Under the pieces are notes generated by a model, which saw only the letters and a program-made list of their open reading frames with translations, ran no database searches and was not told the DNA's origin. 64,000 bases of DNA, taken from contig JAFXHU010000026.1 in the NCBI GenBank assembly GCA_017533565.1, positions 1,949-65,948 on the forward strand. Reading direction: 5' to 3'. Of the stretch, positions 23,620-53,906 are shown in pieces. The DNA comes from Clostridia bacterium (GTDB lineage Bacteria; Bacillota; Clostridia; Oscillospirales; CAG-272). Each line of letters begins with the position of its first letter. Position 1 is the first letter of the stretch. The position numbers and the translations under genes are program-made.

Positions 23620-23835
23620 ACATTACTCTGCGCAAGGGGCGAAAGCCTTCAAGCGGGGAAAGTGCGGTGAAAATCCGTCGCAACAGCCATTGCCGTTAAA
23701 GTCGGAAGGCCCGTCGCAGAGAGTGTATATATTCCTTGGGCAAACGGAGGAAGAAGATACGGGCGGCGCTTTGCCTTTGGCTTTTGCCGCTTCAATTCCC
23801 GAATGCCCTCTTTATGCAAAGGGGGCTTTTTGTTT
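23620..23835 (+). promoter_or_regulatory. Cobalamin-riboswitch-like leader with terminator
   Basis: GGGGAAAGTGCGGTGAAAATCCG core (23654-23678). GCCATTG...CGGAAGGC resembles the GCCACTG...GGGAAGGC pairing. Terminator GCCCTCTTT/AAAGGGGGC plus a T-run at 23805-23831. Confidence 0.5.
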
Positions 23836-26152: not shown

Positions 26153-26228
26153 TGGAGCTGCTACCCGGATTCGGACCGGGGACCTCATCCTTACCAAGGA
26201 TGTGCTCTACCAACTGAGCCATAGCAGC
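26153..26228 (-). tRNA. tRNA-Thr (anticodon GGU), CCA encoded
   Basis: The reverse complement GCTGCTATGGCTCAGTTGGTAGAGCACATCCTTGGTAAGGATGAGGTCCCCGGTCCGAATCCGGGTAGCAGCTCCA folds as a 76-nt cloverleaf: 7-bp acceptor stem, anticodon loop TTGGTAA. Confidence 0.95.
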
Positions 26229-50438: not shown

Positions 50439-52325
50439 TTATTCTGCGAGTATAAAGGTGGCGGGGCGAAGATTTGTTTCATAAGTGCGGAAGGTGACCG
50501 TTCCGTTGTTATCTTGGTAATAAGAGAATGTTCTGCCGCTTGAGCCCAAATAATACTTTCCACTCTTTGTCAAGTCTAACGCCGTGGTGCTTGATGTGAG
50601 AGATTTGGAGCTTGAGCCTGTTCCGTAATAGGTCTTTTTACCTTCGGAATCCTTTGAATAAATATGGTATGTATTGTTGGATTCCTCGATGTAAAGCTTT
50701 AACGCCTGTGATTTGTCGGTTGTCGCCGCACCTACTCCGCTTGATATATCACCCGTAAAATAATATGTGATGTTATTGAGTGTTATAGTGAGGTAGTACG
50801 CCGTTTCTTCCGACTCGGTGGGGGTGTCGGGCTCGGTTGTGCCGCTGTCGCCCTCGCTGCCGCTGCTGCCGCCGTCCTCCGTGCCGTCGTAAATGCTGTA
50901 ATCTCCCGTTGCAAAATCAATGGTAAAGCCGGGCTGCTCGTTGTAAACGAAAACGCAGAAGCATACGTCCGCGCCGTTATCCTCAACGCTCCAGCCCTCC
51001 ATAATAACGCCCGTGGCAACGAGGTTATTGCCCTCGAATACGGGAGTTACGCGGTACATAACGTGTCGGTCCTCTCCCGCGGATTTGTATTCCTTCATCA
51101 CGTCAAGCACCAAATTTTCAAAAATTTGCATATAGACCTGATTGAAGGACTGCGTGCCCGTGATGAGGTTTTGACGGTTTGCATCCTCGCCCGCGAGACT
51201 GTGCGCGATGAGGTGACTGCGGTTATAAAGAGATGCACCCGGGACGTTTTCCTGTACTATCGGGTCGCTTGCGGTGCTTATCCAGCCCGTCGGCTTTACC
51301 GAGCTTATGTCGCCGCGCTCCTTGGTGGGCATAAGGTCAACGCCAAGGCAGGCAACCGCCGTGCCGCATCTGCCGAGCGAGTCGAGGGGAGAGTAGTATT
51401 CGTAGCTTTCGCTTACTATTTGATTGTTCGTAAAGAAGGGCGTGCCGCCGTTGAGCGTAACGTAGCCGATTTGCTCCTTTTGACTGTATTTCGGGATAGA
51501 GCCGACGTCAAAGCTCGGCATCGTAAGCGCGGGTGCTTCGGTTTGAAGGGTGACACCGTAAACCGCGTTGAGCGTAAGGTCAGAGCCGACGGTAATGCTT
51601 ACCGTCCTGCTTTCCGAAATAACCGCGCCGTCACCGTCCGCCCAGTAGGAGAAATCGCCCTCCGCGCTTCTTTCGTCCGCGGTAAGGGTCAAGGACTGTC
51701 CGCTTTTGTAAAGCCCCTTCGTAAATCCGTCCTCAAGGGTCGCGCCGCTTACGTTTACAAGGTAATAGCACTCGTTTGCGAGCCTGTCGGTGCGGTAGTT
51801 GAAATAAATTTGCGCCGCCGCTCCGTAATCGAGCATATCCTTTATAAGCGTTGTCAGTTTAGCGTCGGAGGAGTTGTTAAGTTGGAAATGCGAGTATTCA
51901 AGCACGCTGTATTTTAAGGGGTCGCTGTAAACGTATCCGCCCTCCGTCGATATACATACCACGGCATAGAAATCGTCCGCAATCATTTTGGCGTTAAAGC
52001 CGTCGAAGTCGAAGCAGTAATAGGATACTCCGTTTGCCGTTTTTTGTCTGCCCTCGTAGGGCACGGAGTATTTTTCGCCGCCCTTTTGGTAGGACTCCTG
52101 TGCCTCCGACCAAACGAGGACGCTTACACCGTAGGGGTCGGAAACACCCTCGAGCGAAACGTAGTAGCGCATTACGACGGTATTCTCAAGTAAAAGCGAA
52201 GCGCCGCCGAAGCGTGCGCTTTCCGTCGGTTGCTCGCTTACGGTATCGTTGCTTGCCGCAACACCAAAAATAACCGTGCCGATAATAAATAAAAGCACGG
52301 TTAATATAACAAGAAGCTTTTTCAT
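50439..52325 (-). CDS. Secreted multidomain DNA/RNA non-specific endonuclease (Endonuclease_NS_2-like core)
   Basis: Signal peptide. Central LGRCG...NRSHLIAHSLAGEDANRQNLITGTQSFN motif. Gly/Ser/Thr/Glu linker followed by a C-terminal domain of about 130 aa. Confidence 0.65.
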   Translation of the reverse strand: MKKLLVILTVLLFIIGTVIFGVAASNDTVSEQPTESARFGGASLLLENTVVMRYYVSLEGVSDPYGVSVLVWSEAQESYQKGGEKYSVPYEGRQKTANGVSYYCFDFDGFNAKMIADDFYAVVCISTEGGYVYSDPLKYSVLEYSHFQLNNSSDAKLTTLIKDMLDYGAAAQIYFNYRTDRLANECYYLVNVSGATLEDGFTKGLYKSGQSLTLTADERSAEGDFSYWADGDGAVISESRTVSITVGSDLTLNAVYGVTLQTEAPALTMPSFDVGSIPKYSQKEQIGYVTLNGGTPFFTNNQIVSESYEYYSPLDSLGRCGTAVACLGVDLMPTKERGDISSVKPTGWISTASDPIVQENVPGASLYNRSHLIAHSLAGEDANRQNLITGTQSFNQVYMQIFENLVLDVMKEYKSAGEDRHVMYRVTPVFEGNNLVATGVIMEGWSVEDNGADVCFCVFVYNEQPGFTIDFATGDYSIYDGTEDGGSSGSEGDSGTTEPDTPTESEETAYYLTITLNNITYYFTGDISSGVGAATTDKSQALKLYIEESNNTYHIYSKDSEGKKTYYGTGSSSKSLTSSTTALDLTKSGKYYLGSSGRTFSYYQDNNGTVTFRTYETNLRPATFILAE

Positions 52326-52363
52326 TTTATCTCCTATGGATGTGTTAGAATGAGCTTTTTTTC

Positions 52364-52393
52364 ATTCTACCACGCCCGCCCGTGAAAAGTCAA
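52364..52393 (-). promoter_or_regulatory. Promoter of the nuclease gene
   Basis: On the - strand: TTGACT, 18-bp spacer, TGgTAGAAT (extended -10). Confidence 0.5.
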
Positions 52394-52444
52394 TATTTTT
52401 TTGAGAGTAATTAACATTTTTTAAAAAAACCTTTTCAAAATGCG

Positions 52445-52624
52445 TTATTTTGCAGATTGTTTAGCAATTTTTTCGCCTTGCGCGCCTTTCGGTGGCGTGG
52501 GGGAGGGGTATGGGATAAGCCGAGTGCGGTGATGAAACGAAAGCAAAACGGGTTCAAAATAACGGGAAAACTGTTTGAGTTTAATATTATCGTCCTCGAG
52601 GTCTATAATTGTAACTTTAAACAT
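52445..52624 (-). CDS. 59-codon ORF, probably a truncated gene start read into flanking sequence
   Basis: AGGAGA RBS plus ATG (MFKVTIIDLEDDNIKLKQFSRYF...). The 3' half runs out of the AT-rich islet into GC-rich DNA. Below the ORF-track cutoff. Confidence 0.3.
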   Translation of the reverse strand: MFKVTIIDLEDDNIKLKQFSRYFEPVLLSFHHRTRLIPYPSPTPPKGAQGEKIAKQSAK

Positions 52625-52640
52625 TTTTATTCTCCTTTTT
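52617..52640. repeat. Left copy of the 24-nt direct repeat TTAAACATTTTTATTCTCCTTTTT
   Basis: Identical 24-mer at 53162-53185. On the - strand it carries AGGAGA-N6-ATG-TTT-AA. Confidence 0.85.
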
Positions 52641-52648
52641 TTGTTTTT

Positions 52649-52954
52649 TTACTTCTCTTTTTTGATACCAAAATATGCAACTGTACCACGGTTACGCTTT
52701 CCATCATCATTGTAAAAATGATCTACAATCTGCTTTTTAGCCTCACGGTTGAGGTCATATGTATTCCCCTTATACTTTGGCTTTTTCTTATCCGATGCCG
52801 ATACTATCATATTTGGAAGTCGAGCATCGATTTTTCCAATGATATGATAATCAGAATTCAATTTCGGTTTTCCGTTTTTAGTTTTTGACCAAGCTTTTTC
52901 GCTAGGGATAAGACGCACATCTTTGTGCTTTAAGCTGTAATTTACACTTGACAT
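52649..52954 (-). CDS. Hypothetical Lys-rich 101-aa protein (orphan, AT-rich islet)
   Basis: AGGAGA RBS 7 nt before the ATG. About 22% Lys+Arg. No family recognised. Confidence 0.55.
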   Translation of the reverse strand: MSSVNYSLKHKDVRLIPSEKAWSKTKNGKPKLNSDYHIIGKIDARLPNMIVSASDKKKPKYKGNTYDLNREAKKQIVDHFYNDDGKRNRGTVAYFGIKKEK

Positions 52955-52976
52955 AATAATTCTCCTATGTTATAAT
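52948..52976 (+). promoter_or_regulatory. Consensus sigma-A promoter P1, overlapping the RBS and start codon of the opposite-strand 101-aa ORF
   Basis: TTGACA (52948-52953), 17-bp spacer, TATAAT (52971-52976). The CAT of the ORF start lies at 52952-52954. Confidence 0.65.
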
Positions 52977-52982
52977 AAATTT

Positions 52983-53097
52983 GCCACTTGACCTGAACAG
53001 GTTAGTATCGGGGAACTCCGCGATACCAGAGAAGACACTTTGGCTTTTATGGTGAGACTTCTCAACGACCACCCTCATTTGAGGGTGGTTTTTCTTT
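52983..53097 (+). ncRNA. Candidate sRNA of about 115 nt (P1 to terminator)
   Basis: Bounded by the consensus promoter and a 9-bp GC-rich hairpin plus T-run. Internal stems GTATCG/CGATAC and GAGAAG/CTTCTC. No SD-preceded ORF. Confidence 0.45.
53068..53097 (+). terminator. Strong intrinsic terminator
   Basis: ACCACCCTC-ATTT-GAGGGTGGT followed by TTTTTCTTT. Confidence 0.8.
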
Positions 53098-53161
53098 ATG
53101 AGAAAATATTACCGCTTTCGATATTTCGCATATACATCTTTTGCATTCTTAAAACCAAAAC

Positions 53162-53185
53162 TTAAACATTTTTATTCTCCTTTTT
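53162..53185. repeat. Right copy of the 24-nt direct repeat
   Basis: Identical to 52617-52640. Here the ATG opens only a 6-codon ORF, MFKFWF-stop (53149-53169, - strand). Confidence 0.85.
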
Positions 53186-53213
53186 AATTTATAGGGTTTT
53201 AATTTATAGGGTT
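53185..53213. repeat. Two direct copies of TAATTTATAGGGTT (15-bp period) abutting the -35 of P2
   Basis: Copies at 53185-53198 and 53200-53213, 14/14 identical. The second copy overlaps TTGACT. Confidence 0.8.
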
Positions 53214-53240
53214 GACTTTTGTTTAAATATGGTATATACT
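53212..53240 (+). promoter_or_regulatory. Sigma-A promoter P2
   Basis: TTGACT, 17-bp spacer, TATACT. Confidence 0.6.
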
Positions 53241-53246
53241 ATGTAC

Positions 53247-53321
53247 AGTTCCGTTGGGAACACTTAGCCTAACCCTGGTAGGGTTAGGCAAACGCTTAAC
53301 ATCTTGTTGGGCGTTTTTTTA
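53247..53321 (+). ncRNA. Candidate sRNA of about 75 nt (P2 to terminator)
   Basis: Three hairpins: GTTCC/GGAAC, GCCTAACCCT/AGGGTTAGGC (10 bp), and the terminator AACGCTTAAC/GTTGGGCGTT plus T7. Convergent with the integrase remnant. Confidence 0.4.
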
Positions 53322-53504
53322 TTTTTTCATGTGTTTTTGTATATAATGATGGTGCCTTCGTTTTAACGAATACCGACCTACATCTTGAATTTTGTTTATC
53401 GGAACATTTGTGATTGCATTTTTATGAACGCCCCCAAATCTCGGAAGTGTAGTATCTGTTTTAGGGTGGAGCTTTTGGGTAGGTCTAAAACGCTTTTCGC
53501 GCAT
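53319..53504 (-). pseudogene. C-terminal remnant of a tyrosine recombinase/integrase
   Basis: The 61-aa ORF ...INKIQDVGRYSLKRRHHHYIQ resembles the ..IQ..LGH.S...T..Y.H catalytic-Tyr end of phage integrases. No N-terminal part is present. Confidence 0.35.
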
Positions 53505-53534
53505 TAAAAAGGATTAAAATAAATAATATACTTG

Positions 53535-53563
53535 TTGACATTTTGGGAAAAAGCGGGTATAAT
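53535..53563 (+). promoter_or_regulatory. Consensus sigma-A promoter of the DUF1292 gene
   Basis: TTGACA, 17-bp spacer, TATAAT. Confidence 0.7.
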
Positions 53564-53594
53564 TAAAGAAAAATGATACTTGGCGAGGTGTGAA

Positions 53595-53906
53595 ATGGAA
53601 GAAAGAGAAATAAATCAAATAGACAAAATTCTCGACGAGAATAACGAGGACAACATATTCCTTTACGACGAGGACGATAACGAGCTTGAGTTTGAGCAGG
53701 AGGCGGTTATCCCGATGGACGGCTCGGTTTACGTAATTCTCGTGCCCGTGACTCCTATGGACGGGGTTGGCGAGGACGAGGGCGTTGTCTTCGTAATCGA
53801 GGAGGACGAGGACGGCGAAGCGGTGCTTTCTCTCGTTATCGAGGACGAGATTATTGACGCGGTTTTTGATGAATACGACGGACTTTTGGCGGAGGATGGG
53901 GAATAA
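53595..53906 (+). CDS. DUF1292 domain-containing acidic protein
   Basis: About 103 aa from MEEREINQ. DEDDNELEFE...YVILVP...FVIEEDEDGE pattern. Confidence 0.7.
   Translation: MEEREINQIDKILDENNEDNIFLYDEDDNELEFEQEAVIPMDGSVYVILVPVTPMDGVGEDEGVVFVIEEDEDGEAVLSLVIEDEIIDAVFDEYDGLLAEDGE

Follow-up and report, generated by a model that had tools for sequence, protein, structure and literature searches.

A conserved, putatively pseudoknotted small RNA whose promoter overlaps the start of a basic protein gene in mobile elements of gut Clostridia

A conserved module of about 460 bp was detected in a 64,000-nucleotide stretch of a Clostridia bacterium contig (GenBank: JAFXHU010000026.1; hereafter the window). 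On comparative evidence the module is made of two real genes, one for a small RNA and one, on the opposite strand, for a 101-aa basic protein, ORF101. Its normal home, judged in the same way, is a group of uncharacterised temperate, integrase-carrying rolling-circle elements of gut Clostridia, and the copy in the window is a 0.5-kb remnant of such an element. The most likely role of the RNA is that of a brake, or an immunity factor, directed at the later genes of the element. Our working model, which we hold tentatively and at close to an even chance, is that the RNA is a countertranscript which, together with its head-on promoter, gates the read-through from the replication genes into ORF101 and the genes downstream, and that, as an immunity-like RNA, it can be retained alone. 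Confirmation would provide a compact example of mobile elements in Firmicutes being controlled or excluded by an RNA. The RNA could also be a marker for detecting these elements.

The small RNA is predicted to be about 115 nt long (52983-53097, + strand), with the predicted start at G52983, 7 nt past the -10 box, and the end in the T run of the terminator. Its promoter is TTGACA-17-TGnTATAAT, with 12 of 12 consensus positions plus the TG. The -35 box TTGACA is at 52948-52953 and the extended -10 box TGTTATAAT at 52968-52976 (TG at 52968-52969, TATAAT at 52971-52976), both on the + strand. The exact pattern TTGACA-N17-TATAAT occurs seven times in the window, compared with 0.00 expected from 100 shuffles, so consensus promoters are a real signal in this genome. 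At the other end lies an intrinsic terminator (53067-53097, + strand), a 10-bp stem with a 4-nt loop (53067-53090) and a T run to 53097. It is unidirectional; we rejected a bidirectional terminator, as the - (ORF) strand has no T run after the hairpin. A terminator was found in 37 of the 39 loci as a hairpin of -11.5 to -22.5 kcal/mol with a T run, a few nucleotides past the RNA core, and its stem sequences vary among loci. The first-pass annotation of this DNA had described a + strand promoter with TTGACA and TATAAT 17 bp apart, a + strand unit ending in a strong terminator and, in the promoter spacer, the Shine-Dalgarno sequence AGGAGA (52961-52966, - strand) of an ORF with its ATG at 52952-52954 (CAT on the + strand), and all of these are present where it had placed them. 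We infer transcription of either strand.

The 115-nt RNA has a predicted folding energy of -44.9 kcal/mol (z = -5.06), and none of 200 shuffled sequences was as stable. In the alignment of the RNA, 88.4% of the cells at paired positions can pair, compared with at most 45% in slid controls, and none of 500 shuffles matched the observed values. Compensatory changes are seen in 24 of the 29 base pairs, and the window RNA scores 78.8 bits with the covariance model (R1). By this pattern of covariation the + strand unit is a genuine conserved small-RNA gene with five covarying helices including a pseudoknot. The 5' strand of helix P1, GCCA (52983-52986, + strand), pairs with UGGC at 53041-53044 in the loop of P5, forming an H-type pseudoknot. 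In the alignment P1 corresponds to columns 3-9 paired with columns 84-90, with changes on both sides in six of seven pairs and variants such as GCCA/UGGC, GACCA/UGGUC, GUAGCA/UGCUAC and GCGGUA/UACCGC; its first G is found 6-7 nt after the -10 box across the loci. P2 (52989-53004, + strand) is a hairpin of variable sequence. P3 (53005-53026, + strand) has a two-part stem, of which the 3' side CGCG is conserved and the apical part variable; its columns 47-51 pair with columns 64-68 in 100% of the cells and covary in five of five pairs. The most conserved region of the RNA is P4-P5 (53029-53063, + strand), in which P4 (53029-53034 with 53058-53063) and P5 (53036-53039 with 53051-53054) enclose an invariant A/AGA internal loop. 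P4 pairing is found in 95.6% of the cells with covariation in five of six pairs, P5 pairing in 94.7% with covariation in three of four, and the alignment columns A75, G76 and C78 are invariant. Between the window and its closest relative, the locus L047, there is hardly any change in the promoter, in P1 and P4-P5 or in most of the terminator stem, while P2 and P3 are swapped: the P2 sequences are exchanged with compensation and the P3 hairpins differ in their apical part.

Known RNA families do not account for this RNA. None of the 4,227 Rfam families, including ctRNA_pGA1, ctRNA_pT181, ctRNA_pND324 and C4, reached its gathering score over 52983-53097, where the only match at E<=10 is a chance one of 13.7 bits, and the RNA of 14 further loci had no Rfam match either. 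This covariance search, which the first-pass annotation had proposed, thus gave no match to a known housekeeping RNA; tRNA and tmRNA identities were also rejected. We regard the RNA as a well-supported new small-RNA family, with a covarying pseudoknot, that is absent from Rfam. The first-pass annotation had also stated that the + transcript has no ORF preceded by a Shine-Dalgarno sequence. This has to be amended in so far as an unconserved 41-codon ORF starting with TTG exists; its point that the strand is non-coding stands, since the covariation is of the RNA type, and on this ground we rejected a coding role of this ORF.

Promoter and T-run direction mark the + strand as the functional one, and in the core helices G.U pairs outnumber A.C pairs by 43 to 15 in the transcribed sense. 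These observations bear on a very different explanation, that the conserved structure is one of single-stranded DNA rather than RNA, for example a single-strand origin for the complementary-strand synthesis of a rolling-circle element. Such an origin would be well placed in a non-coding gap that lies beside a rolling-circle Rep gene in many loci, and the orientation relative to the element is strictly conserved. It would, however, need neither the sigma-A type promoter nor the hairpin/T-run terminator that are conserved on one strand, and copies in host context without Rep retain promoter and structure. Together with the excess of G.U pairs this makes the DNA explanation very improbable.

With its terminator placed within 3-5 nt of the pseudoknotted domain, the layout also resembles an aptamer with its expression platform. 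A domain that senses a ligand or factor could control its own terminator, and since the DNA past the terminator corresponds to the upstream gene in antisense orientation, read-through would make a long antisense RNA across the upstream replication genes. We consider this highly unlikely, because the terminator overlaps no helix of the fold, conserved anti-terminator pairing was not seen, the terminators are strong with full T runs and the downstream sequence of copies without ORF101 is unrelated. A riboswitch or cis-regulatory leader was rejected outright, as nothing is encoded downstream on the RNA strand; what follows there is the 3' end of a convergent gene or, in copies without ORF101, unrelated host DNA.

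ORF101 (52649-52954, - strand) is the first gene past the RNA in the operon of the element. The -35 box of the RNA promoter overlaps its start codon, and CTCCT is found in the promoter spacer of most loci. In this case of dual coding, identical bases serve as RNA promoter and as ribosome-binding site, start codon and first codons of ORF101. Codons 2-5 of ORF101 (52940-52951) coincide with the -35 box and the A/T-rich DNA preceding it, and their synonymous sites are frozen. All 36 ORFs compared have TCA as codon 2, although four to five codons are used at other Ser positions. AAT stands at codon 5 in all 37 ORFs and GTA at codon 4 in 31 of 37. Further along the gene, Ser and Asn codon usage is mixed, as at Asn27 with 15 AAC and 14 AAT. 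TTGACA is found at this position in 40 of 41 loci, followed in nearly all loci by a -10 box TAnnnT at 17-bp spacing, mostly with the preceding TG. The sole exception, L032, has GCT as codon 2 and has thus lost the overlap of promoter and ORF, and a separate replacement promoter, TTGACT-17-TATATT, is present upstream of its RNA. RNA copies without ORF101 have unrelated spacers and lack CTCCT, yet they retain TTGACA, the 17-bp spacing and TGnTAnnnT. The invariant TTGACA, the frozen codons, the replacement in L032 and the promoter kept in ORF-less copies indicate that the promoter is under selection at the DNA level.

ORF101 had been called an orphan, which proved wrong: we found 553 homologues, of which the best 120 are 70-96% identical. 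An exhaustive HMM search gave 102 representatives only. The alignment has 35 invariant columns. The protein is basic and hydrophilic (pI 9.96, 19 Lys, GRAVY -1.11) and has no membrane segment (maximum 0.42 in a 19-residue Kyte-Doolittle window). It has no match in Pfam, NCBIfam (E<=1), PHROGs or PADLOC, and none in a PDB profile search. Its AlphaFold2 model (pLDDT 85.5) found no Foldseek match in PDB (best E 2.5) or in BFVD (best E 0.69). Profile searches and structure prediction therefore agree with the first-pass annotation, whose reader had not recognised the family. From sequence and model, ORF101 represents a new family of conserved proteins that is absent from Pfam and has no known fold. 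HMM matches to the giant MBG-repeat proteins P0154 and P0218 look like noise summed over repeats and were not taken as relatives. As ORF101 follows Rep, we also considered the gene V single-stranded DNA-binding protein of filamentous phages and rejected it: the hhalign probability with M13 gVp is 0.3%, no fold match was found in BFVD or PDB, and the gene position is the sole similarity.

In the elements, the space between the replication and early genes upstream and ORF101 is taken up precisely by the RNA gene. ORF101 heads a conserved operon with genes for membrane or secreted proteins and an ATPase. In 28 of 36 loci the closest gene upstream of ORF101 points the same way; the median gap of about 150 nt matches the RNA gene in length, and in L047 the stop codon of the upstream gene abuts the RNA terminator. 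Among the element genes of this stretch, all protein genes lie on one strand and the RNA alone points against them. The replication genes are either Rep_1 or Rep_OBD with an SF3 helicase. A tyrosine integrase and a Cro/CI-type HTH gene on the opposite strand indicate a temperate lifestyle, and some elements adjoin tRNA genes. Pfam and PHROGs searches with ten neighbouring proteins recognised only Rep_OBD with the helicase. The ATPase-like protein (c2) has 448 relatives, all hypothetical; its structure model is poor (pLDDT 62.5) without a BFVD match, and a PDB sequence search was negative. A tblastn search of ORF101 against GenBank phages and PLSDB plasmids found nothing, and IMG/VR gave a single contig. 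The elements are abundant and unclassified in animal and human gut Clostridia, and almost all of them are missed by phage, plasmid and viral catalogues. Our literature search found no prior description, general comparators only.

The first-pass annotation had suspected a decayed mobile element, and this holds, since the intact element L047 matches exactly the segment 52596-53097, at 85% identity. The homology to all other loci is limited to 52621-53109. The remnant sits in an AT-rich island (about 52330-53580, GC 0.33-0.40 compared with about 0.53 in the flanks), and the host context of this copy was found in eight contigs. Behind ORF101, which is 94% identical to its L047 counterpart at the protein level, lies a 59-codon ORF (52445-52624, - strand), the truncated start of the next gene of the element (84 aa in L047). 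Only its first ~10 codons are inside the L047 homology (MFKVTIIDLE compared with MYKLVITDLD). The RNA gene of the window copy is fully equipped and ORF101 has no recognisable promoter.

In total the RNA gene was found in about 60 loci (~65 copies). The covariance model detects it in 41 loci that had been fetched by the protein, always directly upstream of and antisense to ORF101, and a search seeded with the RNA sequence added 22 loci. Several RNA copies scoring 55-92 bits have no ORF101: one in a purely host context (L078), two each in L061 and L042 and three in L066. The DNA downstream of the ORF-less copies is unrelated host sequence. In L043 and L044 the RNA is intact and ORF101 truncated. 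RNA and ORF101 are duplicated together as tandem pairs in L009 and L059. The tandem RNA copies inside the single element L066 have the same P3, so a rule of one hairpin type for one specificity is not evident.

The ORF strand has no promoter within 300 nt upstream in 32 of 36 loci, a rate that is the same as for the control strand, and a scan of the window found none of at least 9/12 on this strand. ORF101 would therefore be reachable only by read-through from upstream, and with no ORF-strand promoter between the co-directional genes the operon mRNA would contain the complement of the RNA. This layout supports the expectation in the first-pass annotation that any mRNA entering ORF101 from upstream would carry the full complement of the small RNA. 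Its other proposal was a switch between two mutually exclusive promoters, for the RNA and for ORF101, which overlap and share the -10 region, based on the - strand hexamer TATAAC that does overlap the + strand -10 box. In every locus the last base of this hexamer is C (TATAAC, TATATC, TGTAGC and similar), only three of six positions match in its -35 partner, the predicted - strand start would fall inside the Shine-Dalgarno sequence, and the promoter scan finds no overlapping promoter on the ORF strand. We consider such a switch most improbable and retain neither the claimed - strand -10 box nor the mutual exclusion.

The countertranscript model would work as follows. The consensus promoter of the RNA covers the DNA of the ribosome-binding site and ATG of ORF101 and would fire head-on into read-through, interfering with transcription toward ORF101. 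It would also supply an abundant RNA with perfect complementarity to the leader that any ORF101 mRNA carries. Expression of ORF101 and of the genes behind it would then stay off unless strong early transcription overrides the RNA promoter. Pairing would not extend directly over the ribosome-binding site, because the RNA 5' end lies ~17 nt upstream from the Shine-Dalgarno sequence. Being diffusible, and retained with its promoter where ORF101 or the whole element has decayed, the RNA probably also acts in trans, repressing related elements in an immunity-like way. The regulatory effect, its direction and the action in trans are what we infer from this arrangement. RNA genes that survive without the ORF in host DNA suggest an RNA-only immunity function, and the immunity-type reading of the module, though conjectural, is the most attractive one.

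The pseudoknot, the invariant internal loop and a P4-P5 region that hardly varies in elements that are otherwise divergent exceed what a simple antisense RNA needs, which suggests a role for a protein or for tertiary structure. The RNA could instead belong to a new class of structured, pseudoknotted RNAs that act through their fold, in a hitherto unrecognised family of temperate elements or viruses of gut Clostridia, as a partner of ORF101 or as a domesticated RNA-only immunity or anti-element factor; we would give this perhaps one chance in a handful of being the correct alternative, or a little better. A narrower version, which is less probable still, is a functional RNA that forms an RNP with ORF101 or with another element or host factor, for genome handling, for packaging or as a decoy, with the promoter overlap coupling the expression of both genes. 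It would explain the invariant unpaired nucleotides along with the pseudoknotted fold and the near-invariant P4-P5, the abundance implied by a consensus promoter and the very tight linkage to the basic, aromatic-rich ORF101, the best-conserved protein of the element. The tandem co-duplication of the two genes in L009 and L059 fits as well, and arrays of RNA genes suggest a dosage requirement. On the other hand, RNA genes persist without any ORF101, also in host-only contexts, P2 and P3 are freely exchanged, and the predicted fold of ORF101 gives no hint of RNA binding.

The first-pass annotation had likened the module to toxin-antitoxin systems. Type III systems have short RNA repeats in tandem that precede, in the same orientation, the gene for an endoribonuclease of the ToxN/AbiQ family. 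We rejected a ToxIN-like system, as the RNA lies on the opposite strand and forms no short-repeat array, and the protein has no PADLOC or Pfam match. A type I system of the SymE/SymR kind, with ORF101 as a toxin targeting nucleic acids and the RNA as antisense antitoxin, would explain the persistence of the module, including its fixation as a solitary copy in the host of the window. An antisense RNA promoter inside the start of a protein gene is the arrangement of SymR/symE (PMC1891008), the modules have multiplied in tandem, and RNA-only or broken-ORF copies (L042, L043, L044) are what would remain if the toxin decays and the antitoxin stays. Type I toxins are, however, small, hydrophobic toxic proteins (PMC6563280), and ORF101, with 101 aa, a GRAVY of -1.11 and no membrane segment, is hydrophilic. 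It matches neither SymE/AbrB nor ToxN, Pfam or PADLOC, lacks its own promoter in 32 of 36 loci and is fixed as the first gene of a multi-gene operon, and the RNA covers neither its ribosome-binding site nor its ATG. A toxin-antitoxin function is thus unlikely, and ORF101 is not taken as a SymE, with no Pfam or NCBIfam match at E<=1 and no PDB match of its AlphaFold2 model at E<2.

Among known systems, the module as read in the countertranscript model is comparable to the plasmid ctRNAs, such as RNAII of pMV158 and RNAI/II of pT181, in which a short RNA with a strong constitutive promoter is encoded opposite to the operon mRNA, is closed by an intrinsic terminator and has full complementarity to the mRNA leader, in a rolling-circle replicon. 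Promoter (40 of 41 loci) and terminator (37 of 39) likewise delimit a short discrete RNA here. Unlike in the ctRNAs, the target is not the replication initiator: the RNA lies downstream of rep and faces ORF101, with the Rep genes upstream, behind the RNA terminator, so it would not control Rep synthesis. It is also larger, has a five-helix pseudoknotted fold, leaves the ribosome-binding site uncovered and matches no ctRNA of Rfam.

RNA-based control of immunity or anti-repressors in temperate phages is represented by sar of P22, c4 of P1/P7 and the CI RNA of P4, the targets of which are known; c4 and CI are processed from longer transcripts. They share with the RNA described here that a small, stable, constitutive RNA of a temperate element represses downstream genes, which in our case we can only propose, and that such a function can survive in prophage remnants. 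In contrast to them, our RNA has its own promoter and terminator and a presumed target, and it has neither sequence or structure similarity to these RNAs nor a match to the Rfam c4 family.

In E. coli the SymR promoter is embedded in symE (PMC1891008), and the module resembles this pair in that the RNA promoter lies within the 5' end of the opposed gene, which encodes a non-membrane protein of ~100 aa. In our module the overlap with the ATG is limited to the -35 box, and the RNA start lies 29 nt upstream of the start codon. Furthermore, symE has its own LexA-controlled promoter, whereas ORF101 has no promoter and no AbrB/SymE similarity. MtlS of Vibrio cholerae is a cis-antisense RNA of ~120 nt that opposes the 5' region of its target mtlA, and in MtlS/mtlA as in convergent-promoter interference systems the RNA level is set by transcription from the opposite direction (PMC6597380). 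Unlike our module, mtlA is a chromosomal metabolic gene, and MtlS/mtlA lacks a conserved pseudoknot, a promoter that overlaps the start codon, and stand-alone copies.

We also searched for further sites at which the RNA might pair. No other target site that co-varies was detected in the rest of the elements, searches elsewhere in each element for exact 10-mer complements of the RNA gave no consistent site, and RNAduplex of the RNA against the ORF gave unrealistically long duplexes only. If immunity were based on pairing, elements should escape by altering the conserved part, yet they do not. A 12-nt match links RNA positions 53037-53048 with codons 57-60 of ORF101 and is limited to the lineage of the window and L047.

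On the + strand of the window, a TTGACA -35 box (52948-52953) is followed after a 17-bp spacer by a TATAAT -10 box (52971-52976) with an extended -10 TG before it, and the predicted ~115-nt RNA (52983-53097) ends in a 10-bp G+C-rich hairpin and a T run (53067-53097). ORF101, the 101-codon gene of a basic protein on the - strand (52649-52954), starts at the CAT at 52952-52954 and has its AGGAGA ribosome-binding site (52961-52966) within the spacer of this promoter. The sequence thus contains the promoter, ORF start, AGGAGA and terminator as the first-pass annotation had claimed. The 64-kb window contains the exact consensus TTGACA-N17-TATAAT seven times, where 0.00 occurrences were expected, and consensus promoters are therefore meaningful in this genome. 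One of the seven lies at 53535-53563 (+), just upstream of a DUF1292 gene (53580-53906). The terminator hairpin is not followed by a T run when read on the ORF strand. A scan upstream of the window ORF101 found no - strand promoter matching in at least 9/12 positions, and the RNA gene is therefore the sole fully equipped part of the window copy.

ORF101 had been described as an orphan, but a protein search returned 553 relatives, the top 120 of which share 70-96% identity across their whole length. The family has 35 invariant columns, including the N-terminal MS-VNYSLKHK. Among 1.84 billion cluster representatives, an exhaustive HMM search detected only 102 members, indicating that the family is compact and strongly conserved. 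No match to ORF101 was found among the Pfam, NCBIfam, PHROG and PADLOC models or the PDB sequences. The structure prediction proposed for the ORF gave a confident AlphaFold2 model (pLDDT 85.5) of mostly beta strands and one helix, but this model has no neighbour in PDB or BFVD. The protein is strongly basic and hydrophilic, with a pI of 9.96, 19 Lys, 9 aromatic residues, a GRAVY of -1.11 and no membrane segment. Two giant surface proteins of MBG/YDG repeats, P0154 and P0218, match the ORF101 profile via 6-9 weak stretches. These matches are probably repeat-summed noise; a distant beta-grasp-like relationship may exist.

Homology of the window to all other loci is limited to 52621-53109, which is ORF101 plus the RNA unit. 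The predicted RNA folds at -44.9 kcal/mol (z = -5.06), far better than shuffles. An alignment of 39 upstream regions, made without use of structure, backs five helices: the P2 and P3 hairpins, the long interrupted P4-P5 hairpin and P1, in which the first nucleotides of the RNA pair with the P5 loop. As P1 crosses P4/P5, the fold is an H-type pseudoknot. Standard pairs occupy 88.4% of the alignment cells, compared with 36-45% when the partners are slid by 1-3 columns, both-sided changes occur in 24 of the 29 pairs, and none of 500 shuffles reached the observed pairing values. P1 changes as whole classes (GCCA/UGGC, GACCA/UGGUC, GGUCA/UGACC, GUAGCA/UGCUAC, GCGGUA/UACCGC). After the core, 37 of 39 loci have a terminator made of a hairpin and a T run, with stems that vary in sequence. 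A covariance model built from the non-pseudoknotted helices matches 41 of the loci fetched via the protein, always directly upstream of ORF101 on the opposite strand, and matches the window once. By these sequence comparisons, the RNA is a conserved gene. The covariance check suggested for it thus found a conserved RNA with our own model and, for the window copy and 14 further ones, no matching Rfam 15 family. Plasmid and phage countertranscript or immunity RNAs are closest in kind, but the window RNA is a member of no catalogued RNA family. The finding is real: a well-supported new small-RNA family coupled to a new protein family. Positions 53037-53048 of the RNA (ACUUUGGCUUUU, the P1 3' strand in the P5 loop) are exactly complementary over 12 nt to ORF101 mRNA codons 57-60 (KKPK, 52774-52785). 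This complementarity is common to the window and L047, the intact element closest to it, and absent in other lineages, and so may be chance.

The promoter is conserved as well. In 40 of 41 loci TTGACA is present, separated by a constant 17 bp from a TAnnnT hexamer, mostly with TG, and the first G of P1 sits 6-7 nt past the -10 box, which would place the P1 helix at the very start of the transcript. The -35 box, as the reverse complement of ..TGTCAA, constrains the coding of ORF101: codon 2 is TCA in 36/36 sequences, while other Ser positions draw on four or five codons, and codon 5 is AAT in 37/37, compared with AAC 15 and AAT 14 at Asn27. The single locus with GCT at codon 2 (L032) has its own TTGACT-17-TATATT promoter between its ORF and RNA. 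The core helices contain 43 G.U and 15 A.C pairs, an excess which favours the + (RNA) sense. The two-promoter switch proposed earlier is not supported, as there is no credible - strand promoter: the candidate hexamer has C as its last base at every locus, and transcription from it is predicted to start inside the Shine-Dalgarno sequence.

A search of metagenome contigs led by the RNA sequence gave 28 matches in 22 loci, with ORF101 alongside in 19 of the copies, a contig end in two and no ORF in seven (three in L066, two in L061, one each in L078 and L068). Six of these seven retain TTGACA/TTGACG/TTGACT, the 17-bp spacing, TGnTAnnnT, the terminator and compensated helices, and their spacers have lost the ribosome-binding site; the L068 copy has no evident promoter. 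The L078 and L061 RNAs are set among ordinary host genes, and in L061 only ORF codons 1 to 3-4 are left, exactly the stretch that doubles as promoter. Moreover, L042 has a frameshifted ORF101 with two extra RNA genes, and L043 and L044 have truncated ORFs with intact RNAs. Tandem RNA plus ORF modules number two in L009 and three in L059. RNA genes also form arrays, two to four genes long and with a promoter and terminator for each gene, at L066 8005-8532, L061 2285-2552, L042 5713-6116 and L059 270-1540, some without an ORF and some alternating with diverged ORF101 paralogues.

A DNA structure acting as a single-strand origin is an unlikely explanation for the unit, given that a linear promoter and terminator are conserved and copies exist without Rep. 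Type III toxin-antitoxin and riboswitch layouts were also considered and fail on strand and arrangement.

ORF101 is carried by integrative elements in Clostridia MAGs (Oscillospiraceae, Christensenellaceae, Lachnospiraceae and unclassified bins) from ruminant, rabbit and human guts. On one strand the elements encode a tyrosine integrase and a Cro/CI-type HTH gene; the other strand has a long series of genes for small proteins, a Rep of the rolling-circle type (Rep_1, or Rep_OBD plus SF3 helicase), ORF101, several proteins that are N-terminally anchored or secreted, a ~670-aa protein bearing a signal peptide and a C-terminal membrane anchor, and a ~750-aa P-loop protein with multiple membrane segments and 448 hypothetical relatives. 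Some elements adjoin tRNA genes. Pfam or PHROG annotation is almost absent, and none of the proteins downstream of ORF101 has a recognisable family. Neither GenBank phages nor PLSDB plasmids contain the ORF101 family, and IMG/VR has it in one contig. The carriers are mobile elements of gut Clostridia that form an unclassified group, and those of loci L001-L047 (e.g. L005, L009, L014, L027) are apparently an undescribed family. As an impression only, the order of their genes is reminiscent of small temperate viruses of the ssDNA or membrane-associated kind.

The RNA gene occupies a ~150-nt gap between co-directional genes in 28 of 36 loci, with gaps clustering at 121-190 nt, and in 32 of 36 loci no ORF-strand promoter was found in or just upstream of it, a rate equal to that of the control strand. 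For the regulatory mechanism, we infer that ORF101 and the genes behind it would be transcribed by read-through from the early and replication genes, in a transcript complementary to the RNA over its full length. RNA polymerase bound at the RNA promoter, or firing from it, would cover the DNA of the ORF101 ribosome-binding site and ATG and meet the read-through head-on. The distal operon would be repressed through interference and duplex formation for as long as early transcription stays too weak to occlude the RNA promoter. MtlS/mtlA is documented to behave comparably (PMC6597380), and SymR/symE is a precedent for the embedded promoter (PMC1891008). That RNA-only copies have survived with selected promoters points to a function in trans, for which an immunity-like effect on incoming relatives would be the simplest candidate. 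We consider this combination of read-through repression and a trans role tentative, at slightly under an even chance. The same layout might suggest a type I toxin-antitoxin pair with ORF101 as putative toxin. However, type I toxins are defined as small hydrophobic peptides (PMC6563280), which ORF101 is not; it also has no promoter of its own and no defence or toxin-antitoxin family match, and it is the first gene of a conserved operon. Some features fit antisense repression poorly: ~17 nt separate the 5' end of the RNA from the Shine-Dalgarno sequence, and the pseudoknot, an invariant A/AGA internal loop and the near-invariant P4-P5 exceed antisense needs. A search found no second target site. 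These points together keep in play a role dependent on the RNA fold, possibly together with ORF101, which we regard as rather unlikely.

The window holds a decayed remnant of such a mobile element. The closest relative of its ORF101 (94% protein identity) is in L047, and nucleotide identity to L047 (85%) is confined to 52596-53097. It begins at the RNA terminator, which in L047 abuts the upstream gene's stop codon, and stops ~10 codons into the next element gene, in the window a truncated 59-codon ORF. The two copies are nearly identical in the promoter, in P1 and P4-P5 and along most of the terminator stem, whereas P2 and P3 are swapped for different, internally compensated hairpins. This 0.5-kb remnant is part of an AT-rich island of 1.25 kb, which is bordered by a secreted nuclease gene and the DUF1292 gene; eight metagenomic contigs contain the remnant with flanks identical to these. 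A perfect 24-nt direct repeat (TTAAACATTTTTATTCTCCTTTTT; 52617-52640 and 53162-53185, 545 bp apart) brackets the module. It comprises the ribosome-binding site and ATG of the next element gene, and its upstream copy opens a 6-codon ORF only (MFKFWF*). The repeat is probably the trace of a tandem module duplication, as intact in L009 and L059.

A second promoter and terminator unit lies 90 nt past the first RNA (53182-53326, +), with TTGACT (53212)-17-TATACT (53240) and a T-run terminator at the end of a ~81-nt predicted RNA of three hairpins (-37.4 kcal/mol, z = -7.09). Its -35 box is adjoined by two perfect 15-nt direct repeats (TTTTAATTTATAGGG). It has a weak, sub-threshold ctRNA_pGA1 match (24.9 bits, E 0.024) and is not homologous to the element loci. 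At 52470-52535, in the island and within the 59-codon ORF, there is a short G+C-rich segment (CGCCTTGCGCGCCTTTCGGTGGCGTGGGGGAGGGGTATGGG...). The neighbouring gene (50439-52325, -) encodes a secreted-looking DNA/RNA non-specific endonuclease of 628 aa (Endonuclea_NS_2, E 7e-19) with a long N-terminal extension. Elsewhere, the window has an AdoCbl-II (cobalamin) riboswitch at 23636-23720 (+), just over the gathering score with 39.5 bits, and a tRNA-Thr(GGU) gene at 26153-26228 (-).
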